A stretch of DNA of 64,000 nt. Source: Bacteroidales bacterium (GTDB lineage: Bacteria > Bacteroidota > Bacteroidia > Bacteroidales > VadinHA17). Positions within the stretch are counted from its first letter, which is position 1. Each line of letters opens with the position of its first letter. The notes below the pieces were generated by a model that had not been told where the DNA came from, searched no databases, and saw only the letters and a list, made by a program, of their open reading frames with translations. Of this stretch, positions 1-52,967 are shown in pieces. The DNA lies in the NCBI GenBank assembly GCA_027028505.1, contig JALVJE010000153.1, positions 731 through 64,730 on the forward strand, written 5' to 3'. The translations under genes and the position numbers were made by a program.

Positions 1-8
1 CACTTTTC

Positions 9-64
9 GACCTTCGCCATTCGCCATTCGCCGTTCATCCTTCCTTTTGCCTTCTGCCTTTCTT
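9..64. repeat. Heptanucleotide tandem array (8 in-phase units)
   Basis: GACCTTC GCCATTC GCCATTC GCCGTTC ATCCTTC CTTTTGC CTTCTGC CTTTCTT. Confidence 0.9.
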
Positions 65-66
65 CG

Positions 67-102
67 TCCGCCGAAGTCCCGGTACACCGGCACGAAGGCG
101 GA
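67..102. repeat. Conserved hairpin with symmetric GAA/GAA internal loop (copy 1)
   Basis: TCCGCC-GAA-GT.CCGG-taca-CCGG.AC-GAA-GGCGGA. A second copy lies at 3801-3832. Confidence 0.8.
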
Positions 103-103
103 T

Positions 104-152
104 GCCTTTTGCCTTTTTACTTTTGCCTTTTGCCTTATTACTTCTGCCTTCT
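104..152. repeat. Heptanucleotide tandem array (7 units, GCCTTTT type) running into the GRE stop codon
   Basis: GCC-initiated units are in phase at 104, 111, 118, 125, 132, 139 and 146. The last unit overlaps the stop at 151-153. Confidence 0.85.
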
Positions 153-2514
153 AAATACTCTCATGCTCCGTCCTTCTGATGATCTCGTTCTGCAGATCGG
201 TGCCCAGATCGTTGAAGTAATCACTGTACCCTGCCACGCGCACGATCAGGTCCTGGTATTTCTCGGGATGTTTCTGCGCATCGCGGAGGGTCTCGGCCCG
301 CACCACATTGAACTGGATATGATGCCCGTCCATCCTGAAATAGGACCGTATCAGAGCTGTCAGTTTCTTTTTGGCATCCCTGTCTTTGAAGAAATCCGGG
401 GAGAATTTCTGGTTCAGCAGGGTTCCTCCCGTCCGCAGGTGATCGATCTTGGCCACGGAGTTGATGACCGCCGTGGGCCCTTTCCTGTCGGCGCCCTGCA
501 CAGGTGAGATCCCTTCGGAGAGAGGCTCGCCGGCCTTACGTCCGTCAGGCATGGCGCCGATCACCGAGCCGAAATAGACATGGCTGGTAGTAGGCAGCAG
601 GTTGATGCGGAAGGTACCGCCGCGGCTGGTGGGTTTGCCGTCCACGGCCTCAAAGAACATCTCAAACACTTCCTGCGCCAGCACATCGGCATAGTCATCG
701 TCATTGCCGAATTTGTGGGTAAGATAGATCAGCTTGTGACGCAGCTCATCATAACCTTCAAAATTCTTCTCCAGGGCCTTCAGCATGCCGTCCATGGTAA
801 CATCTTTCTGCTCAAAGACATGCTCTTTCAGGGAAGCCAGGTTGTCGGTAATGCTGCCCAGCCCTACGCCCTGGATGTAGCTGGTATTATATCGGGCGCC
901 GCCGGCGTTGTAGTCGCGGCCGTTGGCGATGCAGTCGTCGATGAACAGCGACAGGAAGGGCGCTGGCAGGTACTGCGCATTGATGCGCTCGATGATGTTG
1001 TTGCCCCGTATCTTGATGTCCAGGAAATAGTTTAGCTGTTTGCGGTAGGCTCCCATCAGATCGTCAAACGAGCGGAACGTCCGCGGGTCGCCTGTGGCCA
1101 GACCTATCTTCCTGCCCGTGCGGGGATCGGTGCCGTTACGGAGGGTCACCTCCAACACCTTGTTGAGATTAAAATAGCCTGTCAGGATATAGGCTTCGGT
1201 GCCAAAAGCGCCTGACTCAACACATCCGCTGGCACCGCCTTTCCGTGCATCCACGATGTCCTTGCCCTGGCGCACCAGCTCGGCGATGATGGCATCGGTG
1301 TTGAAGACCGACGGCTGCCCGAAGCCGGTCTTGATGATATCCAGGGTGCGGAGGATAAAACGGTCGGGGTTCTTGCGGCTCACCTGGATCATCGACGAAG
1401 GCTGCAGGATGCGCATCTCTTCGATGACGTCCAGGATCAGGTAAGTCAGTTCGTTGACGGCATCCTTGCCGTCGGGGGTCACGCCCCCCAGGTTGATCAG
1501 GGCAAAGTCGGTGTAGGTATTGCTCTCCTGTGCCGTCACGCCGATCTTGGGCGGCGAGGGGTGGTTATTGAACTTCACCCAGAAAGCCTGCAGCAGCTCG
1601 CGGGCCCGCTCTTCGGTGAGGGTCCCCTCCTCCAGTCCCTGACGGAAGAAAGGCAGCAGCTGCTGGTCGAGACGGCCGGGGTTAAAGGAGTCCCAGGGGT
1701 TGAGCTCCGACACCACACCCAGGTGCACGAACCAATAGTACTGCAGCGCTTCGTGGAAGGTACGCGGAGCGCGGGCCGGCACCCACCGGCAGACGGCCTC
1801 CATCTCCTGCAACTCGCGGCGCCGCCGGGGATCTTTCTCTTTTTTCGCCTCTACATGCAACAGGTCGGCATAGCGGGCGGCAAAGCGCATCACCGCGCCG
1901 GCGGCGAGGCTCATGGCCGTCAGCTCCTCGCGTTTATCGTAGGCCTCCGGATCGTTGGCAAAGTCAAGCGCCCGGATGTGGCGGCGTATCTCGCGCTGCA
2001 GGTCAAGCAGACCCAGGCGGTAGATCTTGTCCCCCAGAACGGTGTGGCCGGGGGCGCGCTGCTCCTGGAACTCGGTGAAGACGCCGGCGCGGTATGCCTC
2101 CAGCCAGGGCTTCTCCATCGCCGCCATGATGCGGTCGCGGTTGGTGCGGCCTTTCCAGTACGGGATGATCTCCTCGCGGTATACACGCCGCACCTCATCA
2201 TCCACTTTGAAAGAGACCTTGGGACGGGTATCCAGGATCTCCAGGTCCTTCAGCGAGTGCAGGGTGATCTCGGGATAGGTGGGCGTGGCCTTGGGTGCCG
2301 GCCCGCGCTCCCCGACGATCAGCTCTCCCTCGCCCAGCCAGAGATGCTTATGACGCAGGAAATGATCCAGCGCCAAAGCCCGCTGCACCGGGACCGACCT
2401 GCCCCGGGCCCGGGGACTCTTGTAAAACTCCGTGATGAGCACCGCCCGCTCGGCCGAAATGCGGTTGACCGCCTGCAGGCTCTGCTCTCTCAGTTTTTCT
2501 ATTCTTTCAGTCAT
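151..2514 (-). CDS. Glycyl radical enzyme, PFL2/glycerol-dehydratase (1,2-eliminase) class; possibly trans-4-hydroxy-L-proline dehydratase-like
   Basis: 787-aa ORF. C-terminal glycyl-radical fingerprint RVAGYSDYF. Active-site loop GGASGCVESG has a single Cys plus Glu, not the PFL Cys-Cys pair. An activase gene lies directly upstream on the same strand. Confidence 0.93.
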   Translation of the reverse strand: MTERIEKLREQSLQAVNRISAERAVLITEFYKSPRARGRSVPVQRALALDHFLRHKHLWLGEGELIVGERGPAPKATPTYPEITLHSLKDLEILDTRPKVSFKVDDEVRRVYREEIIPYWKGRTNRDRIMAAMEKPWLEAYRAGVFTEFQEQRAPGHTVLGDKIYRLGLLDLQREIRRHIRALDFANDPEAYDKREELTAMSLAAGAVMRFAARYADLLHVEAKKEKDPRRRRELQEMEAVCRWVPARAPRTFHEALQYYWFVHLGVVSELNPWDSFNPGRLDQQLLPFFRQGLEEGTLTEERARELLQAFWVKFNNHPSPPKIGVTAQESNTYTDFALINLGGVTPDGKDAVNELTYLILDVIEEMRILQPSSMIQVSRKNPDRFILRTLDIIKTGFGQPSVFNTDAIIAELVRQGKDIVDARKGGASGCVESGAFGTEAYILTGYFNLNKVLEVTLRNGTDPRTGRKIGLATGDPRTFRSFDDLMGAYRKQLNYFLDIKIRGNNIIERINAQYLPAPFLSLFIDDCIANGRDYNAGGARYNTSYIQGVGLGSITDNLASLKEHVFEQKDVTMDGMLKALEKNFEGYDELRHKLIYLTHKFGNDDDYADVLAQEVFEMFFEAVDGKPTSRGGTFRINLLPTTSHVYFGSVIGAMPDGRKAGEPLSEGISPVQGADRKGPTAVINSVAKIDHLRTGGTLLNQKFSPDFFKDRDAKKKLTALIRSYFRMDGHHIQFNVVRAETLRDAQKHPEKYQDLIVRVAGYSDYFNDLGTDLQNEIIRRTEHESI

Positions 2515-2593
2515 GTCAGTTTCGAGTTTCGAGTTTTGAGTATCGAGTTAATAGTATCGAGTTATCCGTTCATCTTTCATCGTTCGTCGTTCC
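2515..2593. repeat. Heptanucleotide tandem array filling the whole activase-GRE intergenic spacer
   Basis: GTTTCGA GTTTCGA GTTTTGA GTATCGA GTTAATA GTATCGA GTTATCC GTTCATC TTTCATC GTTCGTC GTTCC. Confidence 0.9.
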
Positions 2594-3391
2594 TTATCCT
2601 CCAATCTTAACCCTGAATCCGGCTTTCTCATACCTTACCTTCAGTTTTTCCATCTCCTTCTCTCCCGGCTCGGGCACACCGGCCATGCGGTATTCCATCC
2701 CGAATTTCTCATACTTGTGAGCTGCCAGAGCATGGTAAGGCAGCAGATCGACCTCTTTCACGGCCCCGTTCAGCCCTTTTAGGAAACGCAGCGTTTTCTC
2801 CGTATTTTCCTCCCCGTCGTTGATGCCGGGGATCACGGGGATACGGATATACAGGTCTTTCCCCTCTGCCGCCAGGAAGGTTAGGTTCTCCAGGATCTGC
2901 CGGTTGGAGACACCGGTGTATTTCAGATGCTCCGCCTCGTCCATGTGTTTCACGTCATACAGGAAGAGGTCCGTCAGCTCCAGGATCTTCCGCAGGTTCT
3001 TCCTGGAGGTGTGCCCGGTAGTATCCACCGCCGTGTGGTAGCCTTCGCGCTTGCATGCCAGCAGCAGGTCTTCCAGAAAATCCCCCTGCCAGAGGGGTTC
3101 GCCTCCGGAGAGTGTTACCCCGCCGTCCGACTCCTCCATGAAAACACGCTCCCGGTTGATCTCCCGCATCAGCTCTCCGACGGTCATCCACCGGCCTACC
3201 GTTTCGCGGACGGGAAAGTCTTTCCCCTCCATCTTCTGCACCGTGATCACCTCTTCCGGCTCCTTCCGGATCCCCTCGGGGTTGTGGCACCACCAGCAGG
3301 AGAGCGGACAGCCTTTAAAAAAGACCGTCGTCCGGATGCCCGGACCGTCATGCACCGCATATCGCTTAATATCGAAGATTAAACCTTTCAT
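2594..3391 (-). CDS. Glycyl-radical enzyme activating protein (radical SAM)
   Basis: Radical-SAM motif CPLSCWWCHNPE (CX3CX2C) near the N-terminus. N-terminal MKGLIFDIKRYAVHDGPGIRT is typical of GRE activases. I moved the start to the internal Met at 3391 (265 aa); the track ORF extends to 3598 through low-complexity sequence. Confidence 0.88.
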   Translation of the reverse strand: MKGLIFDIKRYAVHDGPGIRTTVFFKGCPLSCWWCHNPEGIRKEPEEVITVQKMEGKDFPVRETVGRWMTVGELMREINRERVFMEESDGGVTLSGGEPLWQGDFLEDLLLACKREGYHTAVDTTGHTSRKNLRKILELTDLFLYDVKHMDEAEHLKYTGVSNRQILENLTFLAAEGKDLYIRIPVIPGINDGEENTEKTLRFLKGLNGAVKEVDLLPYHALAAHKYEKFGMEYRMAGVPEPGEKEMEKLKVRYEKAGFRVKIGG

Positions 3392-3666
3392 CGAAAAAGG
3401 AAATGGAAAAAAACAAAAAAAATGTGGAGAAAAGAGGGACAGGCACACCGGCCGGACAGGAGGGATCCCTAGTAGATCCAGCACTCGAAGAGATGGTGCA
3501 CGAACAGTTTCTTGTATTTTTTGATCGCAGGCATAGAAACTCCTTTGTTGCTGCAAGTTAGGAAAAAGCCCGGAAAAAACAAAAAGAAAGATCACCAAGT
3601 GGATATGTGCAGATATCAGGAATTATGCTCAGACATATTTACACATGGGATAAAAGAAATCAGATA

Positions 3667-3866
3667 GAAATTAGCTCACTGCATTGCCCGCCGAAGGCTT
3701 GCCGGAGGCTGGACGTTCGCGAAATTAGCCCCGACTGCGTCGGGTCGAAATTTAGTAGAAATTAGTTCGCTAACGCGAACGAAATTTACTCGCTGCCTTG
3801 TCCGCCGAAGTTCCCATAAGGACGAAGGCGGAACGCTCGTGAAATTAGCGCCTGCGGCGCGTCATT
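3667..3866. repeat. Array of six GAAATT(A/T)(G/A) units, each followed by a different GC-rich hairpin
   Basis: Units start at 3667, 3721, 3747, 3758, 3781 and 3841. Hairpins include CCCGAC-tgc-GTCGGG, GTTCGC-taa-GCGAAC and GCGCC-tgc-GGCGC. The two long units (3667, 3781) are ~55-60 nt and homologous. Confidence 0.85.
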
Positions 3867-3920
3867 CAAAGATCATCAACTTATCGGTGGTTTCTGAATA
3901 GCCGAAAGCGTATCAAAGGA

Positions 3921-4021
3921 CTCATCGCTCATAGCTCATCGCTAACTTTTCCCACTCTTCAGACTTTTTAGACTTTTTGACTTTTTGACTTTTGACCTTC
4001 GAGCATCGACATTCGACCTTC
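3921..4021. repeat. Short-period (7-9 nt) tandem arrays ending on the Omp85-like stop codon
   Basis: CTCATCG CTCATAG CTCATCG at 3921-3941. Then GACTTTTTA GACTTTTT GACTTTTT GACTTTT GACCTTC GAGCATC GACATTC GACCTTC at 3962-4021. Confidence 0.88.
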
Positions 4022-5210
4022 AGAACGCTTCCCCGAACCCCAGGAACACCGTATGTCCTCCTTTGGAGAAGCCTATGTCCATGCGCAGCACCGAGCTGGT
4101 AGCCTTGTCCATCAGGATCCGCAGGCCGCCGCCCCCGGCATAATGAAAGCCGTTGCCTTTAAAGTCCGGCAGGTGGGGTTGCACCTGCCCCATTCCTCCG
4201 AATACAGCCCCCCCCACAATCCAGAAAATCGGGAACCGCATCTCCAGCTGCGCCAGAGCCAGGGATTTGTCACGGAAACGCCCCCGGTAGATCCCCCGCA
4301 TCCGGGACTTCCCCCCGACCTGCGCCAGCGACTGCACCGGCACCTCTCCCATCCGTATCTCGGAATAGAGCTGACCGGCAAAGGTCAATTGTTTGAACAG
4401 GGTAAAATATTTTCGCAGATCAACGGTAATATTTCCATAATCGAATTTACTCCCGAAGATATGACTGTACAGATCATAAGAGAGATAAATGTACGATCCC
4501 TTTGTCGCCTGCAGGCGGTTGTTGCGGCCTTCGCGGAAATATTTGATCCCAAACCCCGACTGGATCCCCTCATTCCCCTCCAGGTCAAGATCGGGGAATG
4601 TATCCTTCTGCTCGACATGCATAAAATTGTTAAACGTATAGCGAAATCCTATATAATTGACCGTAACGATATTGTAATTAAAGCCGGGTTTGAGGAGCAG
4701 GTTTTTAAAATCTGTGAGCACGGCATTGGTTTCCGGCGTATTATTTCCCACCCCGTAATAGAGCATGGGAAAATCCCGGAAAGTAAACTCAAAGACCGTA
4801 TTGAAACGGTTGGGACCGAACATCAGGTCCCCTTTCAGTTTGATCTCATATTGCTTGTTGAGGGTATAAAAACCGTAAAGAGAAACACTGGAGAGTTGCA
4901 TCAGGGAATCCGGCAGATGCTTGTTATGGAACTTGAAAGCATTGTATTTGATAATACCGAAAGTGAGATTTGTCTCGGTGGAATATCCCAGATATGGGAC
5001 CGGCATGTATTTGAACAGTTTGCCGAACAGGCTCTCGGCCTCTTTGGCATACACCTCTTCCGGCAGTGTATCATGCCTCATCAGAGAGTCTGCAGAACTA
5101 CCTGTGGGACCATACAGGAACGAGGTGTCAGGATTTTCATAAAATGACGCAGCCCTTAGCCCCTGAACACAAAAGACCAGTATAAGTATAAGAATCCCCC
5201 GCTTGATCAT
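4020..5210 (-). CDS. Omp85/BamA-family outer-membrane beta-barrel protein (bacterial surface antigen domain only)
   Basis: Signal peptide MIKRGILILILVFCVQGLRA. Alternating beta-strand pattern, an RGY/RGI motif, and a C-terminal aromatic residue (GFGEAF). Confidence 0.78.
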   Translation of the reverse strand: MIKRGILILILVFCVQGLRAASFYENPDTSFLYGPTGSSADSLMRHDTLPEEVYAKEAESLFGKLFKYMPVPYLGYSTETNLTFGIIKYNAFKFHNKHLPDSLMQLSSVSLYGFYTLNKQYEIKLKGDLMFGPNRFNTVFEFTFRDFPMLYYGVGNNTPETNAVLTDFKNLLLKPGFNYNIVTVNYIGFRYTFNNFMHVEQKDTFPDLDLEGNEGIQSGFGIKYFREGRNNRLQATKGSYIYLSYDLYSHIFGSKFDYGNITVDLRKYFTLFKQLTFAGQLYSEIRMGEVPVQSLAQVGGKSRMRGIYRGRFRDKSLALAQLEMRFPIFWIVGGAVFGGMGQVQPHLPDFKGNGFHYAGGGGLRILMDKATSSVLRMDIGFSKGGHTVFLGFGEAF

Positions 5211-5222
5211 GCTCCGCTAAAT

Positions 5223-7577
5223 TTATTTTCCGAACTGATACTCTTTTGGGGGCTCGGTATCAAGCAGGTATCGCACGAAGTAGTCCCATTTCCTCCGCAT
5301 CATATATCTTGAATCGGATCCGTAACCATGGGACCGGTTCGGGAAGAGGATCAGGTCGAAATCCTTGTTGGCTGCGATCAGGGCTTCAACCAGCACCAGG
5401 GTATTGTTCACCGGCACATTGCCATCCATGGTGCCATGGGCCAGCAGGAGGTGTCCTTTGAGGTTCTTCGCCAGGAGCTGGTTGGCCTGGTTGTCATAAT
5501 TGCTGGTGCCGTCCGGATTCACTTTCAGCAGTCCCTGCCATTTCTCGCCCCAGTCATCTTCATAGATCCTGTTGTCGTGGTTGCCCGATTCGCTGACGGC
5601 CACTTTGAAAAAATCAGGATAACGCAGGATGGCGTCGGCTGCGGCATAACCTCCCCCCGAATGGCCGTAGATCCCCACCCGGGTGGTGTCTATCCACGGA
5701 TATCGCTCTGCCAGTTGCCGCATCCCTGCGATCTGGTCGGGCAGCCCGTTATCGCCCATATCCCCGTAGTACGCTGCATGGAACGATCTGGAGCGCATAG
5801 GTGTGCCCATGGCATCCAGCGAAACGACGATAAATCCCAACTCAGCCAGGGCCTGTTTATCTCCCCGTGCAGGCAGGAAACTCCTCCCCCGCACACTACC
5901 GGTCTGGGGCCCCGGGTAAATGGCATTGATGATGGGATATTTCCGGGAGGGATCCAAATGAGTAGGCTTGAACATCAGCCCGTACAGATCGGTTTTCCCG
6001 TCACGTGCTTTCACCACGAATGGCACAGGAGGCTGCCAGCCCATGGCCAGCAACTCCGAGATATCCGCCTTCGCCAGGGTGAGCAGCTTTTTACCCTTAC
6101 TGTTCCTCAGAACTGTGACCTGCGGCTGTACCGGCGTTGAATATGTATCGGTAAACCAGGTACCTTCAGGAGATAAAGAGACCGAATGATCGGCACTGTC
6201 CGGCGTCAGCAGTCGCAGATCCCGGCCATCCATACGCACACTGTAAAAGTATTTGAAATAGGGATCTCCCGGCTCTCTTCCGGCACCCATAAAATAGATC
6301 TTCCGCTCCTTTTTATCCAGTCGCAGGATATCCAACACATTCCACGAACCCGAAGTGATCCTGTTCTTCAGCTTTCCGGTCGTCAGATCGTACAGGTACA
6401 GATGTCCCCAGTTATCCCGCTCGGAAAACCAGATCACCTCATTGCTCTCCGGCAGGAAACGCCAGTTGAACGCATTGTACCCCGACTCAAAAAAAGTGGG
6501 GGTCTCCTCTTCCAGAACATCTCTGACCTCACCTGTGGCAGCATCGGCGACACGCAGAACGACCCTGTGGTGATCCCTGGAGACAGACACAAAGGCCAGC
6601 CGGCTGGCATCCGGGCTCCACGCCACATCCAGGAATTTTCCACCCCGCCCCACAATATCGTCCGTCACAGTGGAGCGGTGTTGGTCCGGTTTCATTTTCA
6701 GTTCCACCACCTTCGGGCCATCGAGGGAGATGATCACCCGGTGCAGGCGGAAAATGACCGAATCTTCGGGTAAAGGATATCTCCAGGCCTTCAGATCCGG
6801 ATGCCCCACCTTGGTGGAGACCATGTACATCATACCTACCCCACGCTCATCCAACCGGAAAGTAGCGATCTTTCTGGAATCGGGAGACCAGAGCAATACC
6901 GGCCGTGAACTGCGCCTCCATCCTGCATTGTCAGTGGCATATCCGAAATCTTTCACACCCTCAGTGGTCAGCTGCGTCTCTTTGCCGCTTTCCAGATCAC
7001 GCACCCACAGGTTATAGTCACGGATGAAAGCTCCATATCTCCCGTCCGGGGATTTCACATAGTTGCTCCTCATGTAGGAAGCATTCCATCCCCTTGCGAC
7101 CGCTTCTTTCTTTCCCTGCTCCTGAGCCCCGGCATCCTTTTTCACGGACAAACGGTTCGTCTGCCGGTTCCACACATATTCTCCGGATCTGACACGAAAA
7201 GTGATCTCATGCCGGTCATCTGAGAAGGTGATCCTGTAAAACGGCAGCTTCAACGGATCGTATTCCTTTCCCAGCGTGTCTGAGAGAGCTGCAGCAAGTT
7301 TCTCATGGTCAAAAGCCCGCTCAACAGATCTTTTGCGGGCATTTCCCAGGAGAAACTCCGTCCCTCCCTCCACATCATGCCTGTACCAGAAAAGATCCTT
7401 ATCGATCCAGACCGGCCGGATGCTCATATTGCGCACCAGAGAAAAAGTATTTCCCGAAAGGAATTTTGCGGCACGGGCATAGTCGTCACTTGTAACAGCT
7501 ATATTGTCCAGTGGCTGTGCCTGCGCTTCCGTAACAAGAAATACGGACAAAATAAAAGAACCAACAAATCTTCTCAT
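5223..7577 (-). CDS. S9-family serine peptidase, dipeptidyl-peptidase IV-like
   Basis: 784 aa with a signal peptide and an N-terminal beta-propeller-like region. C-terminal alpha/beta hydrolase domain carries the nucleophile motif GHSGGGY. Confidence 0.9.
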   Translation of the reverse strand: MRRFVGSFILSVFLVTEAQAQPLDNIAVTSDDYARAAKFLSGNTFSLVRNMSIRPVWIDKDLFWYRHDVEGGTEFLLGNARKRSVERAFDHEKLAAALSDTLGKEYDPLKLPFYRITFSDDRHEITFRVRSGEYVWNRQTNRLSVKKDAGAQEQGKKEAVARGWNASYMRSNYVKSPDGRYGAFIRDYNLWVRDLESGKETQLTTEGVKDFGYATDNAGWRRSSRPVLLWSPDSRKIATFRLDERGVGMMYMVSTKVGHPDLKAWRYPLPEDSVIFRLHRVIISLDGPKVVELKMKPDQHRSTVTDDIVGRGGKFLDVAWSPDASRLAFVSVSRDHHRVVLRVADAATGEVRDVLEEETPTFFESGYNAFNWRFLPESNEVIWFSERDNWGHLYLYDLTTGKLKNRITSGSWNVLDILRLDKKERKIYFMGAGREPGDPYFKYFYSVRMDGRDLRLLTPDSADHSVSLSPEGTWFTDTYSTPVQPQVTVLRNSKGKKLLTLAKADISELLAMGWQPPVPFVVKARDGKTDLYGLMFKPTHLDPSRKYPIINAIYPGPQTGSVRGRSFLPARGDKQALAELGFIVVSLDAMGTPMRSRSFHAAYYGDMGDNGLPDQIAGMRQLAERYPWIDTTRVGIYGHSGGGYAAADAILRYPDFFKVAVSESGNHDNRIYEDDWGEKWQGLLKVNPDGTSNYDNQANQLLAKNLKGHLLLAHGTMDGNVPVNNTLVLVEALIAANKDFDLILFPNRSHGYGSDSRYMMRRKWDYFVRYLLDTEPPKEYQFGK

Positions 7578-7657: not shown

Positions 7658-9121
7658 CTATTCTTTTACAGGCACATGTTTCAGCGTTTCCACCAGGAAG
7701 TCCCAAAATTTTTGCACCGAAGCAATGTTCACTTTTTCGTCGGGCGAGTGGGGATAGCGGATCGTAGGACCGAAAGAGATCATGTCCAGTCCGGGATATA
7801 CCCCTCCCAGCAGTCCGCACTCCAGACCGGCATGGATGGCCTTGATCTCGGGGATCTTTCCGAACCGGTTGTTGTAGATCTCACGCATCTCTTTCAGGAT
7901 GGGTGAAGCCATATTGGGTTTCCAGCCGGGATATTCTCCGTCGAAGGTCACCTCGCCACCAGCCAGGGAGGCAATGCTGCTGAACACATTTTTCAGGTCT
8001 TCCCGTGCCGTATCCACCGAGCTGCGCAACAGGCACAGCTCCTCGAATGTCCCATTGGACATACGTATCACGGCCACATTGTTGGAGGTCTCTACCAGCC
8101 CCTCCATGTCGGTACTCATACGGATCACCCCATGCGGGCTGGCATACAATGCATCCAGGATCTTTTCCTGCGATTCCGTATCCATGACCTTGGCAGGTGT
8201 CTCGCTACGTTCAGCCGTCACGGTGACCCAGGGATCTGCTGAGCTCAGCTCATCTTTGAGCACCTGCTCCATTTCGGCTATGTATTTCACAAATGCCTCC
8301 GAATTATCTTCCGGAACGGTCACCACGGCATAAGCCTCCCGCGGGATGGCATTGCGCAGATCCCCTCCTTTCATATCCGCTATGCGTATCCTATAAGCCC
8401 GCGCAGCAGTCCACAGGACACGGTTCAGCAATTTATTGGCATTGCCCCGTTCGAGAGCAATATCCACCCCTGAATGTCCCCCTTTCAGGCCGGTGAGGGA
8501 TATTTTGTATCCCACGTGCCCGGCAGGCACTGCCTCTTCCTTATATTTATAAAAGAGATTGGCATTGGTACCACCGGCACAACCCACATACAATTCCCCT
8601 TCATCTTCAGAGTCCAGATTGATCAGGATCTCTCCCTGAAGGATACCGGGCTTCAACCCGAAAGCGCCCGTCATCCCGGTCTCTTCATCAATGGTAAAAA
8701 GCGCCTCAATGGGACCGTGCTGCAAATCTTTGGACTCAAGGACAGCCATGGTGGCAGCCACCCCGATCCCGTTATCGGCCCCCAGCGTAGTGCCCTTGGC
8801 AGTGACCCACTCCCCATCAACATAGGCATCTATGGGATCCTTCTCAAAATCATGATCCACATCATTGTTCTTCTGCGGCACCATATCCAGATGCCCCTGC
8901 AGGATCACCCCCTTGCGGTTCTCCATCCCCGGCGTGGCCGGTTTGCGGATGATCACGTTCCCCACCTCATCCACGATGGTTTCCAGTCCCAAACGTTCAC
9001 CGAACTCTTTCATGAACGCAATGACTTTCTCCTCTTTTTTGGACGGACGGGGTATTTGTGTTAACTCATAAAAATGTTTCCAAACCTCTTTGGGTTCCAG
9101 ATTTAAGATCTCTTTGCTCAT
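7658..9121 (-). CDS. pepD: Aminoacyl-histidine (Xaa-His) dipeptidase, M20 family
   Basis: 487 aa. N-terminal LEPKEVWKHFYELTQIPRPS and metal-site motif GHLDMVPQKN are typical of PepD. Confidence 0.9.
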   Translation of the reverse strand: MSKEILNLEPKEVWKHFYELTQIPRPSKKEEKVIAFMKEFGERLGLETIVDEVGNVIIRKPATPGMENRKGVILQGHLDMVPQKNNDVDHDFEKDPIDAYVDGEWVTAKGTTLGADNGIGVAATMAVLESKDLQHGPIEALFTIDEETGMTGAFGLKPGILQGEILINLDSEDEGELYVGCAGGTNANLFYKYKEEAVPAGHVGYKISLTGLKGGHSGVDIALERGNANKLLNRVLWTAARAYRIRIADMKGGDLRNAIPREAYAVVTVPEDNSEAFVKYIAEMEQVLKDELSSADPWVTVTAERSETPAKVMDTESQEKILDALYASPHGVIRMSTDMEGLVETSNNVAVIRMSNGTFEELCLLRSSVDTAREDLKNVFSSIASLAGGEVTFDGEYPGWKPNMASPILKEMREIYNNRFGKIPEIKAIHAGLECGLLGGVYPGLDMISFGPTIRYPHSPDEKVNIASVQKFWDFLVETLKHVPVKE

Positions 9122-10976: not shown

Positions 10977-10989
10977 AGGGTGGTTTTTA

Positions 10990-11112
10990 GTTCAGAGTTC
11001 AGAGTTCACAGTTCAAAGTTCACAGTTCAAAGTTCACAGTTCAAAGTTCACAGTTCAGAGTTCAAAGTTTAGAGTTCAAAGTTTAGAGTTCAAAGTTTAG
11101 AGTTCAAAGTTT
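10990..11112. repeat. Heptanucleotide tandem array (~17.5 units, GTTCANA / GTTTAGA)
   Basis: GTTCAGA x2, then (GTTCACA GTTCAAA) x3, GTTCACA, GTTCAGA, then (GTTCAAA GTTTAGA) x3, then GTTCAAA. It fills most of the nnr-lipoprotein spacer. Confidence 0.95.
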
Positions 11113-11126
11113 ATTGGTTTGATGGG

Positions 11127-12653
11127 TCAAAGTGTATGGCTGGAATTTTTTACCCGGAGGAAAGCCTTGCCGAGGTGATCTATGATATCGGAAGCGATCA
11201 GGGCTTCTTCTCCTTTTTCATCGCGGGCCAGGTCGCCGGCCAGACCATGAAGAAAAACCCCGGCCATAGCGGCTTTCGTCGGCGGATACCTTTGTGCCAG
11301 CAGGGAAAGGATAATACCTGTCAGCACATCTCCGCTGCCGGCCGTAGCCATCCCCGGGTTACCGGTCATATTGAACCATATCTCACCTTCCGGTGTGGCA
11401 ATGGCAGTGTGAGCACCTTTGAGCACCACGATCACTTTGTATTTCACTGCAAAATCCATGGCTTTATGGACCCGTTCATAGCCATTGACGGCAGGACCGG
11501 CGAGCCGTTCAAACTCTTTGGGATGGGGTGTGAGCACCGTACCTTCCGGCAACTCTTCATACCATTCCGGATGCAGGGCCAGCATATTGATGGCATCGGC
11601 GTCCAGTACCAGCGGCACCCGGGCACCGGTGATCAGACCGTGTAAAGCTTTTTGGGGGTTGGAACGGGTGCCCAGCGCCGGGCCGGCGCCTACAGCCGAA
11701 TAACCCGTAAGATCAGGCACATCACTGAAAAGGATATCCGAGGGATCATCATCCAGCATCGCTTCCGGTACCGCCGTTTGCATGATGTCATTACCCAGAC
11801 GCGGCACATGAACCGTCAACAGGCCCACGCCGCTGCGCAGGCAGGCCCGTGAAGCCAGTACGGCTGCTCCCATCCGGCCGTATGATCCGGAGATAAGCAT
11901 GGCGTGCCCGTAAGTCCCCTTGTGACTGAACTTACGACGGGGTCGTATCATCCTGCCAACCTCCTCTTCCGTCAGATAATAATAGGGTGTGGGGGTGGAA
12001 GCAATAATATCCGGATGCAGACCGATGTCCAGCACCACCCATTCACCGGCAAAGTCCTCATTCTCCGGAAAAAAGAAAGCCAGCTTGGGAAACTGAAAAG
12101 TAAGGGTGTAACGGGCTTTCAGGATCTTCGTGGGATCGTTGTCCCTATTGTCTTCTCCGAAAAGGCCCGACGGCACATCAATGGCAATGACCACAGCGCC
12201 GGAAGCATTGATACGCGCCACGGCTGTCTCAGGCAGGCCTCTCAGAGGACGGCTCAGTCCCGAGCCGAAGATCCCATCGATCACCAGCACCTCCTCAGGG
12301 ATCTCCGGCAGTTCCTTTTCACGCGTCACCATCGTCACCGGCACCTTGCCCGTTTTCTGAAGACGTTCCAGGTTGGTACGGCAGCTTTTGGAAATATTAT
12401 CGCTAAAACGCAAAAAATAATCGGCTACCTCATAGCCCTCCTGTGCCAGCATACGTGCCAGCGCCAGGCTGTCCCCACCGTTGTTGCCGGGCCCTGTGAA
12501 GACCATCACCCTGTAGTGCCGGTCAAAATGTGCCCTGATCCATTCAAACAGTTTTCCGGCGGCACGCTCCATGAGATCGATGTCGGCAATGGGCTCATGC
12601 TCGATCGTATAAGCGTCGATCCCGTGTACCTCGGATGTCCTGAACAGTTTCAT
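11127..12653 (-). CDS. nnr: Bifunctional NAD(P)H-hydrate repair enzyme (epimerase/ADP-dependent dehydratase)
   Basis: 508 aa. YjeF N-terminal domain (GPGNNGGD) fused to a carbohydrate-kinase-like C-terminal domain (GSGDVLTG). Confidence 0.9.
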   Translation of the reverse strand: MKLFRTSEVHGIDAYTIEHEPIADIDLMERAAGKLFEWIRAHFDRHYRVMVFTGPGNNGGDSLALARMLAQEGYEVADYFLRFSDNISKSCRTNLERLQKTGKVPVTMVTREKELPEIPEEVLVIDGIFGSGLSRPLRGLPETAVARINASGAVVIAIDVPSGLFGEDNRDNDPTKILKARYTLTFQFPKLAFFFPENEDFAGEWVVLDIGLHPDIIASTPTPYYYLTEEEVGRMIRPRRKFSHKGTYGHAMLISGSYGRMGAAVLASRACLRSGVGLLTVHVPRLGNDIMQTAVPEAMLDDDPSDILFSDVPDLTGYSAVGAGPALGTRSNPQKALHGLITGARVPLVLDADAINMLALHPEWYEELPEGTVLTPHPKEFERLAGPAVNGYERVHKAMDFAVKYKVIVVLKGAHTAIATPEGEIWFNMTGNPGMATAGSGDVLTGIILSLLAQRYPPTKAAMAGVFLHGLAGDLARDEKGEEALIASDIIDHLGKAFLRVKNSSHTL

Positions 12654-12812
12654 GGCTGATCCTTTTGTTCTCCCGCAAAGTTAATAAAGAAGAACGTCAT
12701 TCCCATGAGAAAAAAGAAAGATCAACGGATACAGGATTTGTCATTAAAAAAAGATAATTATTTTTGTCAGGTACAGGAACTTTTCATTCTTAACCCTTAA
12801 AACCGGCAGATC

Positions 12813-14465
12813 ATGTTCAAAGGACACCCCAAAGGATTGTATGTTGCTTTTTTTGCCAATATGGGAGAACGTTTCGGCTTCTACACCATGATGGCCATTC
12901 TTGTTCTCTTCCTGCAGGCAAAATACGGACTCTCAGCCGAGAAAGCCGGATCTGTTTACAGCACATTCTATTTTGCCATCTACGGCCTGGCCCTGCTGGG
13001 CGGGATCCTGGCCGATGTCACAGGCAAACTGATGCGTACCATCCTTTCGGGACTGGTCATCATGTTCCTGGGGTATGTGCTGATGTCCATTCCCGGTTTC
13101 GGGCTGGGGGTTTCCCTGACAGCCCTGGGGATCATCGCCTTTGGTAACGGTCTTTTCAAGGGCAACCTGCAGGCGCTGGTAGGTAATCTTTATGAAGATC
13201 CCAAATACTCCCATCTGCGCGACCGGGCCTTCACCATCTTTTACATGGGCATAAACATCGGTGCTTTCTTTGCGCCCAGCGCTGCCACAGGCGTGCGTAA
13301 CTGGTGGCTGAAGACGCACGGCCTCGGTTACAATGCCAACCTACCGCAGCTGGCACACGGTTATCTCAACGGCGAACAGATCGACCTGACCTCTTTTCAG
13401 TCCCTGGCCAACCAGGTCTCCTCTGCCCCCGTCACCGACCTGAAAGCATTCGCTTCCCATTACATCGACGTTTTCAGCCAGGGATATCACCTGGCCTTCG
13501 GCATCGCTGCCATTTCGATGGTCATCTCCCTGATCATTTACCTCGTCCTGAACAAGTACCTCCGGTACGGGGACATTGCCAACAAGAAAAAAGATGAGCT
13601 CCCGCCTTCCATGCAGGAGATCTCCCCCCAGGAGACCCGCCAACGTCTCACCGCCCTGGGCCTGGTATTCATCACGGTCATCTTCTTCTGGATGGCTTTC
13701 CACCAGAACGGCCTGACCCTGACCCTCTTTGCCCGCGACTATATCCGCGAGCATGTCTCCCGCTGGTCTTACATCTTTTTCGACCTGCGTTCATTCCTGC
13801 CCCTGATCTTTGCCATCATCGGACTGATCTATGTGCTGAACAAAAAACTGGATACCCGGTCACGTGTCATCGGCCTGGTGGTCATGGTATCCTCTCTGAT
13901 CCTCTTGTTCTATGTTGTTCAGGGATTCAATAACCAGATGCCCATAGAGCCTGAAAAATTCCAGCATTTCAATCCCATCTTTATCGTATTCCTGACCCCG
14001 GTGGTCGTCTGGTTCTTCGGATGGCTGGATAAGAAAGGCAAGGAGCCTTCCACCCCCCGGAAGATTGCCATCGGGATGTTCCTGGCGGCTGTGGCCTATA
14101 TGTTGCTGGTGATACCCTCCTTCCATCTTCCGGCGCCGAAGGTCATCGGTGATGCCGGATCGCCGGAGAGGATCTCCGAGCAATGGCTCATCTCCACATA
14201 CTTTATTCTCACCATTGCGGAACTCTTCCTGAGCCCCATGGGGATCTCCTTCTTCTCAAAAGTAGCTCCTCCCAAAATGAAAGGATCCATGCAGGGTGTA
14301 TGGCTGGGCGCTACGGCGGTGGGTAACCTGCTGTTGCAGGTAGGCACTTTTTTCTGGGTGCGTCTCGAGCTGTGGCAGGTATGGTCCATTTTCATTGCGG
14401 TCACTTTGCTCTCAGGCCTCTTTATCGTATCCATCATGAAAAAACTTGAAAAAGTTGCGAAATAA
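12813..14465 (+). CDS. Proton-dependent oligopeptide transporter (POT/PTR2 family, MFS)
   Basis: 550 aa and polytopic. N-terminal GERFGFYTMMAILVLFL (ExxERFxYY-type POT signature). Confidence 0.9.
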   Translation: MFKGHPKGLYVAFFANMGERFGFYTMMAILVLFLQAKYGLSAEKAGSVYSTFYFAIYGLALLGGILADVTGKLMRTILSGLVIMFLGYVLMSIPGFGLGVSLTALGIIAFGNGLFKGNLQALVGNLYEDPKYSHLRDRAFTIFYMGINIGAFFAPSAATGVRNWWLKTHGLGYNANLPQLAHGYLNGEQIDLTSFQSLANQVSSAPVTDLKAFASHYIDVFSQGYHLAFGIAAISMVISLIIYLVLNKYLRYGDIANKKKDELPPSMQEISPQETRQRLTALGLVFITVIFFWMAFHQNGLTLTLFARDYIREHVSRWSYIFFDLRSFLPLIFAIIGLIYVLNKKLDTRSRVIGLVVMVSSLILLFYVVQGFNNQMPIEPEKFQHFNPIFIVFLTPVVVWFFGWLDKKGKEPSTPRKIAIGMFLAAVAYMLLVIPSFHLPAPKVIGDAGSPERISEQWLISTYFILTIAELFLSPMGISFFSKVAPPKMKGSMQGVWLGATAVGNLLLQVGTFFWVRLELWQVWSIFIAVTLLSGLFIVSIMKKLEKVAK

Positions 14466-14480
14466 TCAAATCCACAGATC

Positions 14481-15968
14481 ATGAAAAACTTTTTTGTCTC
14501 TCTTCGTCCCGGAGGTCATGCTCTTTTGTTCGCTCTGATCTTGGTGATCCTTTTACCGGGCACCTCCTGTAAAAAGGAACCCGACCGTTCCCGTCCCAAT
14601 GTGGTCATTATTTTCATTGATGATCAGGGCTACGGGGACATAGGCCCCAACGGCGCCATTGATTACATCACCCCCAACATTGACAAGCTGGCAGCCGAGG
14701 GGATGCGTTTCACCAATTTCTATGCGGCACAGGCTGTTTGCAGCGCCTCCCGCGCCGGTCTGCTCACCGGATGTTACCCGAACAGGATCGGTATCAGCGG
14801 CGCCCTGATGCCCTGGGCAAAGATCGGCATCAGCGATCAGGAGATGACCATCGCCCAGCTGCTGAAACAGAAAGGTTATGCCACCGGCATGGTCGGCAAG
14901 TGGCACCTGGGCGACAAGAAACCTTTCCTGCCCCTGCAGCACGGCTTTGACGATTATCTGGGCCTGCCTTACTCCAATGACATGTGGCCGGTGGATTTTG
15001 ACGGAAAACCTATTCCAAAGGATTCCAAGTCCTGGAAAGCGAAATACCCGCCCCTGCCTATTATCGACGGCAACGAAAAAGTGGGCGAGATACGTACCCT
15101 CGACGACCAGGGCAAGCTCACTACCATGTACACCGAACGGGCACTAAAATTCATTGATGAACACCACAACGAGCCTTTCTTTTTATATATGGCCCATTCG
15201 ATGGTACATGTACCCCTTGGCGTTTCTGACAAGTTCAAGGGAAAAAGCAAGCAGGGCATGTTCGGGGATGTGATGATGGAAGTGGACTGGTCAGTTGGAG
15301 AGGTAATGAAAGCCCTCGACAAATACGGTCTGACGGACAACACCCTGGTCATCTACACCAGCGACAATGGTCCGTGGCTCAATTTTGGTAACTGGGCCGG
15401 CTCCACCGGAGGCCTGCGCGAAGGTAAAGGCACCAGCTGGGAAGGGGGTCAGCGCGAACCCTGCATTATGCGGTGGCCGGGAGTCATCCCCGAAGGGACC
15501 ATCTGCAACAAGCTCTCCTCTACCATTGACATCCTGCCCACACTGGCTGAGATCACCGGCGCCAAACTGCCGGACCACATCATCGACGGGGTCAACATCC
15601 TGCCACTGATGAAAGGCGAGGAAAATGCCAATCCCAGAAATGTGTTTTATTACTATTATCAGCGCAACAGTCTCGAAGCTGTACGAAAAGGCCACTGGAA
15701 ACTGGTGCTCCCGCACAAATACCGCAGCTACGAAGGGGTGCCCCCCGGCCACGACGGCTTCCCGGGGCCATATGCCCATGATTCCACAGACCTGGCCCTT
15801 TACAACCTGCGCAGGGACCCGGGCGAGAGATATAACGTGATCGATCAGCACCCTGATGTGGTCAAGGACATTATGATAGAAGTGCAAAAAGCCAGGGAAG
15901 ACTTGGGCGATGATCTCACCGGCAACCCCGGAAAAAACAGACGCCCCCCGGGAAAACTGGAGGAATAG
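14481..15968 (+). CDS. Sulfatase (arylsulfatase A family)
   Basis: Signal peptide. Motif DDQGYGD plus the formylglycine site CSASRAGLLTG. Confidence 0.9.
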   Translation: MKNFFVSLRPGGHALLFALILVILLPGTSCKKEPDRSRPNVVIIFIDDQGYGDIGPNGAIDYITPNIDKLAAEGMRFTNFYAAQAVCSASRAGLLTGCYPNRIGISGALMPWAKIGISDQEMTIAQLLKQKGYATGMVGKWHLGDKKPFLPLQHGFDDYLGLPYSNDMWPVDFDGKPIPKDSKSWKAKYPPLPIIDGNEKVGEIRTLDDQGKLTTMYTERALKFIDEHHNEPFFLYMAHSMVHVPLGVSDKFKGKSKQGMFGDVMMEVDWSVGEVMKALDKYGLTDNTLVIYTSDNGPWLNFGNWAGSTGGLREGKGTSWEGGQREPCIMRWPGVIPEGTICNKLSSTIDILPTLAEITGAKLPDHIIDGVNILPLMKGEENANPRNVFYYYYQRNSLEAVRKGHWKLVLPHKYRSYEGVPPGHDGFPGPYAHDSTDLALYNLRRDPGERYNVIDQHPDVVKDIMIEVQKAREDLGDDLTGNPGKNRRPPGKLEE

Positions 15969-16046
15969 CGATAAAACTGATCGTTTTGAAGCCTTTTTGA
16001 TTATTTTTAGTAATTTAGTTCCGCTATTCTGTTAAACCAATACGGT

Positions 16047-16427
16047 ATGGAACCCATCAACATAGAGGAAACCGTAAAGACCCCGCTGATACGTTATCTC
16101 CCGGAGCTCAACAAGATCGAGATCCATGGAAAATCCATCCCCGAAGACCCGCGGGAGTTCTTTAACCCTATCCTCAAATGGTTCGAAGAGTTTTCCGCTG
16201 CCCCGCCGGAAAATACTACCGTGGAGGTCAAACTGGAGTATTTCAATACCAGCTCCTCCAAAACATTTCTCCAGATCTTTAAAAAACTGGAGAATATCGT
16301 CAGGAAAAAGAAAAACGTGAAGATCAACTGGTATTATGAAGTGGATGACTACGACATGAAAGAGTGCGGAGAAGATTACCGGAGCATGCTGAAAGTCCCC
16401 TTCAAAATGATCGAAGTCCTGGAATGA
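16047..16427 (+). CDS. DUF1987 / SiaC-like small regulatory protein
   Basis: 126 aa. The pattern IHGKSIPEDPREFFNPILKWFEEF ... LEYFNTSSSK matches my recollection of the DUF1987 (SiaC) family. Confidence 0.65.
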   Translation: MEPINIEETVKTPLIRYLPELNKIEIHGKSIPEDPREFFNPILKWFEEFSAAPPENTTVEVKLEYFNTSSSKTFLQIFKKLENIVRKKKNVKINWYYEVDDYDMKECGEDYRSMLKVPFKMIEVLE

Positions 16428-16461
16428 GAAGAAATACGATGACCGAAATGTGCTGCGCCTT

Positions 16462-16521
16462 GAACAAGGAACTGTGAACTACGAACTATGAACTATGAAC
16501 TATGAACTATGAACTATGAAC
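16462..16521. repeat. Heptanucleotide tandem array (8.5 units, GAACTAT; reverse complement of the GTTCA type)
   Basis: GAACAAG GAACTGT GAACTAC, then GAACTAT x5, then GAAC. It is followed immediately by the terminator. Confidence 0.95.
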
Positions 16522-16552
16522 AAAAAAAGGAGGTCCCCGACCTCCTTTTTTT
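16522..16552. terminator. Bidirectional intrinsic terminator
   Basis: An A7 run, then stem GGAGGTC / GACCTCC, then a T7 run. It sits between the convergent SiaC-like gene (+) and the tRNA (-). Confidence 0.8.
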
Positions 16553-16553
16553 G

Positions 16554-16627
16554 TAGCGAGAGAGGGACTTGAACCCTCGACCTCAGGATTATGAATCCTG
16601 CGCTCTAACCAGCTGAGCTACCTCGCC
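16554..16627 (-). tRNA. tRNA with CAT anticodon (elongator tRNA-Met, or tRNA-Ile2 if lysidine-modified)
   Basis: Reverse complement folds as a cloverleaf: GGCGAGG TA GCTC AGCTGGTT AGAGC G CAGGA TTCATAA TCCTG AGGTC GAGGG TTCAAGT CCCTC TCTCGCT A. No encoded CCA. The anticodon stem lacks the initiator GGG/CCC feature. Confidence 0.82.
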
Positions 16628-16857
16628 CTGAAATAAGCGGTGCAAATATACAATTTCCTGCCAAAATGCAATCCTAAAAAACACTTTTCCCCTAAAAATA
16701 CATCTGCACGATCAGGGTATAATATGATCTTTTAAGTTCCTCCCCTTCACCATCGTGTAGCCCGGATTTTTATCCCTTTAAAAAAAACAGGAAAAATTTT
16801 TTTTCTTTATATTTTTCCTATATTGCAGACAAACAGATATTCTTTTTAATCAAGCCG

Positions 16858-52687: not shown

Positions 52688-52764
52688 CTTGTTATTTACT
52701 ATTTTTCATATGTTTAAATATACTTTCATATTTCTAACACCTTTCCCTATTTACGCTCTGTGAA

Positions 52765-52967
52765 GTTCTCGGTTCACGGTTCATAGTTCACAGTTCATAG
52801 TTCATAGTTCACAGTTCATAGTTCACGGTTCATAGTTCACGGTTCATAGTTCACGGTTCATAGTTCACGGTTCATAGTTCACGGTTCATAGTTCACAGTT
52901 CACAGTTCATAGTTCACAGTTCATAGTTCACAGTTCATAGTTCACGGTTCATAGTTCACGGTTCATC
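52765..52967. repeat. Heptanucleotide tandem array, 29 phase-perfect units (GTTCATA / GTTCAC[AG])
   Basis: 203 nt with every unit starting GTTC. There is a 14-nt higher-order alternation. It ends 5 nt from the acyltransferase stop, and the periodicity continues as GATCATC ATTCATC into the coding end. Confidence 0.97.

Follow-up and report, generated by a model that had tools for sequence, protein, structure and literature searches.

A probable trans-4-hydroxy-L-proline dehydratase operon with a short activase and a conserved leader reading frame in an uncultured Bacteroidales bacterium

How an eliminase-type glycyl radical enzyme (GRE) is served by an activase that has no ferredoxin-like domain is the question raised by the left end of a 64,000-nucleotide (nt) stretch of contig JALVJE010000153.1 from an uncultured Bacteroidales bacterium, referred to below in its entirety as the window. 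A gene for a 787-amino-acid (aa) GRE, hypD, lies on the reverse strand at 151..2514, and the gene for a 265-aa radical S-adenosylmethionine (SAM) GRE-activating enzyme, the activase, precedes it on the same strand at 2594..3391; the spacer from the activase stop codon to the hypD start measures 79 nt (2515..2593). Taken as a whole, the locus is best explained, and we hold this with considerable confidence, as a two-gene operon for the anaerobic use of trans-4-hydroxy-L-proline (hereafter Hyp).

By every membership feature that can be tested on a sequence, the GRE is a trans-4-hydroxy-L-proline dehydratase (HypD). It scored 1219.5 bits against the NCBIfam HypD equivalog NF043068 (cut-off 1100), with residues 2-785 aligned to positions 1-783 of the 784-position profile, whereas the models for sulfopropanediol dehydratase, CutC, and indoleacetate decarboxylase gave 547, 481, and 395 bits, respectively. 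Among known structures, the crystallised HypD of Clostridioides difficile (PDB 6VXC) ranked far ahead (1004 bits, E 4.6e-301, 53% identity), followed by glycerol dehydratase with 523 bits and HplG (7VUA) with 410 bits. Pfam recognised the PFL-like and Gly_radical domains. The protein has three Cys residues (242, 431, and 528), with C431 alone in the active-site loop, G-C-V-E at 1216-1227, and its glycyl radical motif, RVAGYS, is encoded at 223-240 with G762 as the radical site. An earlier reading of this DNA made from its letters alone, called here the sequence-only reading, had described this single-Cys loop of an eliminase-type GRE in place of the Cys-Cys pair of pyruvate formate-lyase (PFL); that description holds, as do the length of 265 aa and the count of four Cys that it gave for the activase.

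The residues of C. difficile HypD that bind Hyp or take part in acid-base chemistry were named by Backman et al. 2020 (PMC7077986), and we mapped them onto the window protein through a pairwise alignment, in which the window numbering equals the C. difficile numbering minus 3. Phe152, Arg156, His160, Trp277, Asp278, Lys326, Ser334, Asp339, Phe340, Cys434, Val435, Glu436, Tyr450, Thr645, and Gly765 (C. difficile numbering) are all the same in the window protein, and every one of them except Val435, 14 residues in all, is invariant among the 82 HypDs compared. The roles covered by this check include the acid-base network (His160, Asp278, and Asp339), carboxylate binding (Ser334, Tyr450, and Thr645), and packing (Phe340, Phe152, and Trp277). 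The HypD identity that the sequence-only reading had proposed from the loop and a few other blocks, together with its advice to look at family placement and substrate-binding residues, is thus borne out by a score above the equivalog cut-off and by 14 of 14 checked residues. HypD itself is a known enzyme, and its wide occurrence in Bacteroidetes has already been reported.

The partner protein is a HypD-type activase, which on sequence and modelling lacks a block of about 37 residues with eight Cys and has a fold that superposes on the PFL-activating enzyme (PFL-AE). Its ATG is the start used by homologues of 262-271 aa; a longer, TTG-started frame of 334 codons is not used by them. The protein scored 295.3 bits against the general GRE-activase model TIGR02494 (cut-off 174.35). 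Its best NCBIfam family is the HypD activase family NF043069 (299 positions), with 326.7 bits, which is below the cut-off of 425. The match to NF043069 falls into two stretches, residues 61-265 lying on profile positions 96-299, which implies that about 35 profile positions, those with the eight Cys, are missing from the window protein; the missing insert accounts for the score below the cut-off. Against the PflA equivalog TIGR02493 it gave 218.9 bits, short of the cut-off of 231.75, and its partner, HypD, does not have the Cys-Cys loop of PFL. Four Cys residues are present, three of them in the CX3CX2C motif (residues 28, 32, and 35; CPLSCWWC, 3287-3310) and the fourth at position 113. When aligned with long HypD activases, the protein showed a clean gap in which both CX2CX2CX3C motifs are gone and about 20 Cys-free residues are left. 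The minimal activase described in the sequence-only reading, with four Cys, three of them in CX3CX2C, and no Cys-rich insert, is therefore real, and the absence of the auxiliary-cluster domain was seen against the long HypD activases.

The short protein keeps the marks of a radical SAM activase. D15-G16-x-G18-x-R20 (DGxGxR), C28/C32/C35, and G96-G97-E98 (GGEP) are invariant or nearly so in 58 homologues, as are some further positions. An AlphaFold2 model built with these homologues as the alignment had a pLDDT of 95.3 and a pTM of 0.91, and its best Foldseek matches were PFL-AE structures 3C8F and 3CB8 (TM 0.93-0.94 on the target, root-mean-square deviation 1.5-1.7 Å). Residues 46-65 (3197-3256) are predicted to form a beta-hairpin at the place where long activases hold the ferredoxin-like block of two CX2CX2CX3C motifs. 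No SPASM/twitch or peptide-recognition domain was detected by Pfam or in the model.

The sequence-only reading had also presented the pairing of an eliminase GRE with a minimal activase as unusual, and this part did not survive comparison. Anchoring a scan on HypD, with each species represented by one genome, gave 80 loci whose HypDs are 64-86% identical to that of the window. In 77 of them, the reading frame directly upstream of hypD, on the same strand, is that of an activase: 66 encode a short form, 10 a long form, and one gene is cut by a contig end, so that 66 of the 76 classifiable activases are short. The long forms, from Aminicenantes, Acetothermia, and Eubacteriales, have 95-96 residues from CX3CX2C to GGE with 7-9 Cys; the short forms have 43-62 residues there, with 0-1 Cys, and in Bacteroidales this linker is nearly always exactly 59 residues. 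Beyond Bacteroidales, short forms were found in Ignavibacteriales, Chlorobiota, Calditrichota, Verrucomicrobiota, Acidobacteriota, Desulfosarcina, and Asgard archaea. In a large protein database, the best 120 clusters at 90% identity are 51-94% identical to the window activase, nearly all 262-271 aa long, and have the three cluster Cys with zero to few others and no second Cys-rich motif. At 50% identity, the best 150 representatives comprised 77 short, 61 long, and 10 intermediate activases. The claim of unusualness had been made to depend on minimal activases being rare in this subfamily; they are common, and the window locus is an ordinary member of a known family, with an activase of the type normal for its clade.

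These comparisons show that the short activase descends from ferredoxin-domain-bearing HypD activases through loss of the eight-Cys block, and that this loss is common to the greater part of the HypD clade that occurs in Bacteroidota and a number of other phyla. In a neighbour-joining tree, the HypD activases all fell into one group, far from E. coli PflA. In a HypD tree rooted on the C. difficile enzyme, the HypDs with short partners formed one clade with a bootstrap of 32/50, which makes a single loss of the insert likely, though not secure. HypD systems at least 64% identical to the window HypD thus occur both with and without the ferredoxin-like domain. The ten intermediate representatives (P0138, P0164, P0178, P0201, P0208, P0216, P0247, P0255, P0260, and P0265) have 3-5 Cys in the insert region and may be one-auxiliary-cluster intermediates between the long and short forms.

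Compared with known systems, the locus resembles the C. difficile HypD/HypD-AE pair (PDB 6VXC/6VXE; Levin et al. 2017; Backman et al. 2020, PMC7077986) in its enzyme, with all catalytic and binding residues kept, in the position of the activase gene next to hypD, and in the activase core, which is closest to the HypD-activase family. It differs in that the C. difficile-type activase carries the Cys-rich insert, whereas the window activase has one cluster motif only; the C. difficile protein was produced as a fusion to maltose-binding protein (MBP) and reconstituted with 12 equivalents of Fe/S. The window locus also differs from the C. difficile system in having no adjacent proC. E. coli PflA (3C8F/3CB8) shares with the window activase a single [4Fe-4S] radical SAM domain without a ferredoxin-like domain; however, the two are only 34-36% identical, the window activase clusters with HypD activases and keeps a hairpin of about 20 residues that is missing from PflA, and its partner is an eliminase rather than PFL. 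A 2026 review (PMC13450708) states that only PFL-AE and the activase of class III ribonucleotide reductase (RNR) consist of the radical SAM domain alone. The sole published case that we found of non-PFL, non-RNR activases without the insertion is that of the GRM5 microcompartment GRE activases (Ferlez et al. 2019, PMC6325248), which resemble the window protein in this respect but serve another GRE family in microcompartment loci. No mention of short HypD activases was found in the literature searched.

The second feature of the locus is a small open reading frame (sORF) of 21 codons, MPAIKKYKKLFVHHLFECWIY-stop, at 3469..3534 on the reverse strand, separated from the activase ATG by a pyrimidine-rich, G-poor spacer of 77 nt (3392..3468). 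Its peptide (ATG...TAG) is identical in the related locus L001 even though 9 of 66 nt differ, all synonymously; region 3469-3535 is 86.6% identical to L001, as against about 76% for the adjoining genes. Copies were found in relatives at L001 4876-4938 and L083 9860-9922, and also in L085-L204. The peptides form a family of 21-25 codons ending GL[FY]ECW[IM]x-stop, found almost exclusively ahead of hypD, DPP-IV (dipeptidyl peptidase IV), or prolidase operons of Bacteroidota. Of 76 genome loci, 16 have a small reading frame ending L[FY]ECW[IM]x-stop at a distance of 63-259 nt upstream of the activase. When 1.0 Mb was searched in six frames for ECW[IMVL]x{0,1}-stop, the pattern turned up 20 times, in 19 cases shortly upstream of a hypD operon; the L081 copy stands before DPP-IV-activase-hypD. 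The peptide family is not represented by any NCBIfam model and no literature text matched the motif, so that we found no description of this conserved leader gene in either source.

A metagenome scan with the back-translated pattern GxGL[FY]ECW[IM]x-stop matched at least 120 stretches; the counts that follow refer to the 120 matches listed. In 95 of these, the same strand carries an activase, and HypD where the sequence allows, that starts within about 0-260 nt downstream; for nine, the downstream sequence is too short to decide. Of the other 16, the gene that comes next encodes DPP-IV in at least six (followed by a prolidase in L192) and an AMP_N + M24 prolidase in two; in single loci it encodes an EamA transporter, or an S28/S37 peptidase stands behind a decayed activase. 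In L196 (1103-1372), the activase frame has decayed behind an intact leader sORF, and insertion-sequence-like reading frames lie between the sORF and the next gene in L201 (1157-2504) and L113 (3609-3896), which suggests that the leader can outlast its operon or become parted from it.

Among 131 distinct DNA versions of the sORF, L, E, C, and W are 100% conserved, with strong conservation also of G-K-G, L-Y-H, and F, and third positions of codons are free to vary, with an entropy of up to 1.9 bits. It is mostly the last 8-15 codons that are conserved, and conservation ends at the stop codon. As far as sequence comparison can establish it, these data show that selection acts on the amino-acid sequence of the leader peptide, and its position and specificity are shown in the same way. 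We lean towards the view that the sORF is a cis-regulatory leader whose translation probably controls expression of the operon. It may be the leader of a hydroxyproline/proline-peptide regulon, a ligand-sensing arrest peptide of the TnaC or SpeFL kind acting through Rho, although this mechanism is conjectural. Like TnaC and SpeFL, arrest peptides of Enterobacteria, the sORF comes first on the predicted transcript of a catabolic operon, its peptide-level conservation is strongest near the stop codon, and a C-rich, G-poor stretch resembling a Rho utilization (rut) site follows; unlike them, it shows no sequence similarity, belongs to another phylum, and is known from sequence alone. Family-wide, the 60 nt after the sORF stop contain 24.9% C and 11.2% G, compared with 16.7% C and 16.0% G in the upstream control, a composition compatible with a rut site without proving one. 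Classical attenuation was rejected as a general mechanism, since a hairpin with a U-run follows the sORF in some loci only and the peptide is not rich in Pro codons.

Transcription would start from a putative Bacteroidota-type promoter just upstream of the leader, at 3553..3583 on the reverse strand, consisting of TTTG (3583-3580), 19 nt, and TAACTTGC (3560-3553). This pair of -33 and -7 elements, which we take to be a promoter from the published Bacteroides consensus (TTTG/TAnnTTTG), ends 18 nt before the sORF ATG, and its positions are invariant among the window, L083, and L001. The -7 motif TAnnTTTG occurred in 72 of 121 segments upstream of the sORF, compared with 12.6% of control windows, with a peak 90-109 nt before the sORF stop. 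A sigma-70 promoter scan gave no matches, as expected for Bacteroidota, and the TTTG/TAnnTTTG type was therefore sought instead. Translation initiation in Bacteroidota is largely independent of Shine-Dalgarno sequences.

We also considered whether the sORF encodes a small trans-acting protein, or a precursor like those of ribosomally synthesised and post-translationally modified peptides that the adjacent radical SAM enzyme would modify, instead of a cis-acting leader. Selection on the peptide sequence, the invariant Cys-Trp, and the neighbouring radical SAM gene agree with such a role. However, the sORF also heads operons that begin with DPP-IV or prolidase and have no activase within up to 10 kb (L192, L119, and L123), it is always the first reading frame after the promoter-like motif, and the activase is devoid of a SPASM/twitch or peptide-recognition domain. 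The concentration of conservation near the stop codon is likewise that of an arrest peptide, and we consider the trans-acting or precursor role improbable by comparison with a regulatory leader.

The genes around the operon fit a supply of Hyp from peptides. In the window, the gene order is Nnr, DUF4831, PepD, DPP-IV-like S9B peptidase, Omp85-like protein, activase, and HypD. The 784-aa S9B protein (5223..7577, reverse strand; Pfam DPPIV_N + Peptidase_S9) is a DPP-IV/prolyl tripeptidyl-peptidase-like exopeptidase whose best PDB matches were 2D5L/2DCM/2Z3W, deposited as putative dipeptidyl aminopeptidase IV, and the DPP-IV structure 2ECF. We take the former to be the prolyl tripeptidyl peptidase of Porphyromonas gingivalis and the latter to come from Stenotrophomonas maltophilia. 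The 487-aa PepD-type M20 dipeptidase (7658..9121, reverse strand) scored 630.3 bits against TIGR01893, is syntenic in L083, and is present in L004. The 396-aa Omp85-superfamily outer-membrane protein (4020..5210, reverse strand), recognised by profile matches, lies between the DPP-IV gene and the operon and is syntenic in L001 and L083. A 550-aa POT-family peptide:H+ symporter, also recognised by profile matches, is encoded on the forward strand at 12813..14465, 9.4 kb from the operon, an association that is not conserved among related loci. The window shows synteny with L083 (GCA_054005175.1), whose HypD is 97% identical, and partial synteny with L001 (HypD 86%).

DPP-IV homologues lie beside or within the hypD operons of L001, L007, L010, L012, L029, L081, L083, and L157, and L007, L010, L012, and L029 have activase-hypD-dpp4-prolidase operons. 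Across the 80 hypD loci, recurrent neighbours were M24B Xaa-Pro peptidases (15, mostly just downstream), the proline racemase/Hyp epimerase family (9), the ornithine cyclodeaminase (OCD) family (6), S9 DPP-IV (5), and C69 dipeptidases (5). The sequence-only reading had named the prolyl-type peptidase, PepD, and the POT transporter and had placed the locus in peptide catabolism; the neighbours are as it stated, and the recurrence of proline-specific peptidases next to hypD supports the peptide-catabolism setting beyond this single locus. The window S9B exopeptidase is thus a likely supplier of Xaa-Pro or Xaa-Hyp peptides, and Hyp is probably supplied by the adjoining proline-specific exopeptidases, DPP-IV-like and PepD here and also M24B prolidase in relatives. 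In L081, on a 6.2-Mb Bacteroidota contig, hypD is followed within 11270-16813 by genes of glycoside hydrolase families GH127 (beta-L-arabinofuranosidase-like), GH97, and a second GH127, with sORF-DPP-IV and a divergent M24 prolidase upstream of hypD. The collagen origin of the Hyp peptides that the sequence-only reading had suggested gains no support of this kind; the GH127/GH97 genes of L081 would suit plant hydroxyproline-rich glycoproteins equally, and in that locus point to arabinosylated forms of these rather than to collagen.

No proC was visible to the sequence-only reading, and this observation extends past the window edge. Searches of the whole window for proC, prolidase, the proline racemase family, OCD, and C69 homologues gave no matches, the sensitivity of the ProC search, made with an E. 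coli query, being limited. No proC lies past the left window edge in the syntenic relatives L083, which has an alpha/beta-hydrolase and three uncharacterised proteins beyond the point corresponding to position 1, and L001, which has BNR-repeat and B12-binding proteins. According to Huang et al. 2018, proC adjoins hypD in a small subset of genomes only and most hypD loci are without it, with which its absence here fits.

For activation, we propose that the 265-aa protein would work like PFL-AE as a single-cluster radical SAM enzyme. Its CX3CX2C [4Fe-4S] cluster would take up an electron from an unlinked donor (for example flavodoxin or ferredoxin), SAM would be cleaved, and the 5'-deoxyadenosyl radical would take a hydrogen from Gly762 of HypD. 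PFL-AE is driven by flavodoxin and does without a ferredoxin-like domain. The six frames of the window contain no CX2CX2CX3C motif, and no small ferredoxin gene recurs beside short-activase loci, in whose flanks the motif was found only in one unrelated protein of L047. Given the PFL-AE-like fold, one cluster with an external reductant is the most economical mechanism, and by analogy we infer that the window activase follows that of PFL-AE. Alternatively, the auxiliary-cluster function might have been kept and supplied in trans by a separate ferredoxin with two [4Fe-4S] clusters docking at the remnant hairpin. In favour of this, no activase works without an external electron donor, and the beta-hairpin of residues 46-65 is conserved at the insert site; against this stand the same two negative searches, by which we rejected a ferredoxin from a neighbouring gene, and the fact that PFL-AE works with flavodoxin and has no such domain. 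We therefore regard a trans-acting ferredoxin of this kind as quite unlikely and keep to a single-cluster enzyme with an external donor.

In catalysis, by analogy with C. difficile HypD, the glycyl radical would generate a thiyl radical on Cys431, which would abstract a hydrogen from C5 of Hyp, and loss of the 4-OH group would be promoted by Asp275, His157, and Glu433. The product, 1-pyrroline-5-carboxylate (P5C), would be converted to proline or glutamate by enzymes encoded elsewhere. A HypD-like eliminase with another physiological substrate, for instance another hydroxylated or N-heterocyclic amino acid, might be suspected from the mere 53% identity to the sole characterised HypD and from the proline racemase/Hyp epimerase family neighbours in relatives, which hint at isomer traffic. 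Yet the score exceeds the curated HypD equivalog cut-off, none of the 14 residues for Hyp binding or catalysis varies, and the ring-opening relative HplG (7VUA) reached only 410 bits as against 1004 for HypD, which makes a different substrate very unlikely. That the short activase is a decayed, non-functional remnant, with HypD activated by a full-length GRE activase encoded elsewhere, is hardly credible: the score below the HypD-activase cut-off and the importance reported for the domain in the activase of 4-hydroxyphenylacetate decarboxylase (HPAD) would agree with it, but the frame is intact and always directly upstream of hypD, the same architecture recurs in hundreds of lineages down to about 45% identity, the catalytic motifs are invariant, the linker is 59 residues in nearly all Bacteroidota, the modelled PFL-AE-like fold is confident and complete, and genuine decay looks otherwise, as in L196.

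Several points weigh against the reading of the locus as a Hyp operon with a functional single-cluster activase and a regulatory leader. The activase reached 326.7 bits where the equivalog asks for 425, no P5C-consuming enzyme is encoded locally, the leader is present in only about a quarter of related genome loci, and no consistent intrinsic terminator follows the sORF across loci. We found no assays of any short activase or of any Bacteroidota HypD in the searchable literature. In addition, the ferredoxin-like domain was reported as necessary for a lasting glycyl radical in HPAD, as cited in PMC13450708, so that the sufficiency of a single-cluster eliminase activase is not self-evident.

The operon is bracketed by a hairpin, CCGCCTTCG-N16-CTTCGGCGG, which occurs in exactly two copies in 64 kb (0 expected), both on the reverse strand: one at 68..101, about 50 nt past the hypD stop, and one at 3802..3831, after the Omp85-like gene and before the operon. 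A third, degenerate copy is found near 3686-3720, and pieces 5-37 and 3990-4022 are 76% alike. The hairpins may be terminators, REP-like repeat elements, or traces of cassette insertion. A mobile cassette marked by the hairpins and similar simple repeats was also considered; the flanking elements differ in order on the two sides. Region 3667-3863 (reverse strand) contains an internal direct repeat of about 83 nt (3667-3746 versus 3781-3863, 71% identity), and all three occurrences of GCTAATTTC in the window lie within it. Tandem repeats with a period of 7-8 nt occupy many intergenic regions (13-36, 103-136, 2518-2549, 3962-3993, 10989-11111, 16461-16521, and 52764-52965), including AGTTCAA x17.6 and AGTTCAC x28.9; smaller arrays directly follow the hypD and Omp85-like stop codons, and the heptamer array at 2518-2549 lies between activase and hypD. 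An Rfam scan of 1-4200 returned only a sub-threshold ylbH match inside the activase gene (20.7 bits versus 50, E 0.29), which was taken as chance. Elsewhere in the window, 37123-38985 (reverse strand) encodes a 620-aa protein that joins an N-terminal cyclic-nucleotide-binding domain to aspartase/fumarase-type Lyase_1 and FumaraseC_C domains, an apparently unusual architecture, and 29867-31492 (forward strand) encodes an S8 subtilase, possibly a secreted protease, whose C-terminal sorting domain for type IX secretion agrees with a Bacteroidota chromosome.

Tentatively, and as less probable than not, the GL[FY]ECW[IM]x-stop leaders could be read as a new Bacteroidota family of metabolite-sensing nascent peptides, in which stalling at or near the stop codon that depends on Hyp or an Xaa-Hyp/Pro peptide would switch on a regulon; the clade-wide loss of the ferredoxin domain would then, in the same joint reading, mean that auxiliary clusters are dispensable for activation of GRE eliminases. 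That regulon might comprise the short-activase hypD operon, DPP-IV, M24B prolidase, and related proline-specific peptidases, a scope that we consider equally doubtful.

Published accounts of minimal GRE activases lag behind the databases, and the value of this locus is that it exposes a large clade of eliminase activases that naturally do without auxiliary clusters, together with an undescribed conserved leader reading frame ahead of the operon. The role of the auxiliary ferredoxin-like domain in GRE activases is an acknowledged question, for which HypD orthologues with and without the domain constitute a natural experiment. Short HypD activases may also provide small enzymes with a single cluster that are less difficult to work with than the MBP-fused C. 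difficile protein. The leader, a candidate cis-regulatory element, links hypD with proline-specific peptidases; if confirmed, it would count among the rare cases of leader-peptide control in Bacteroidota.

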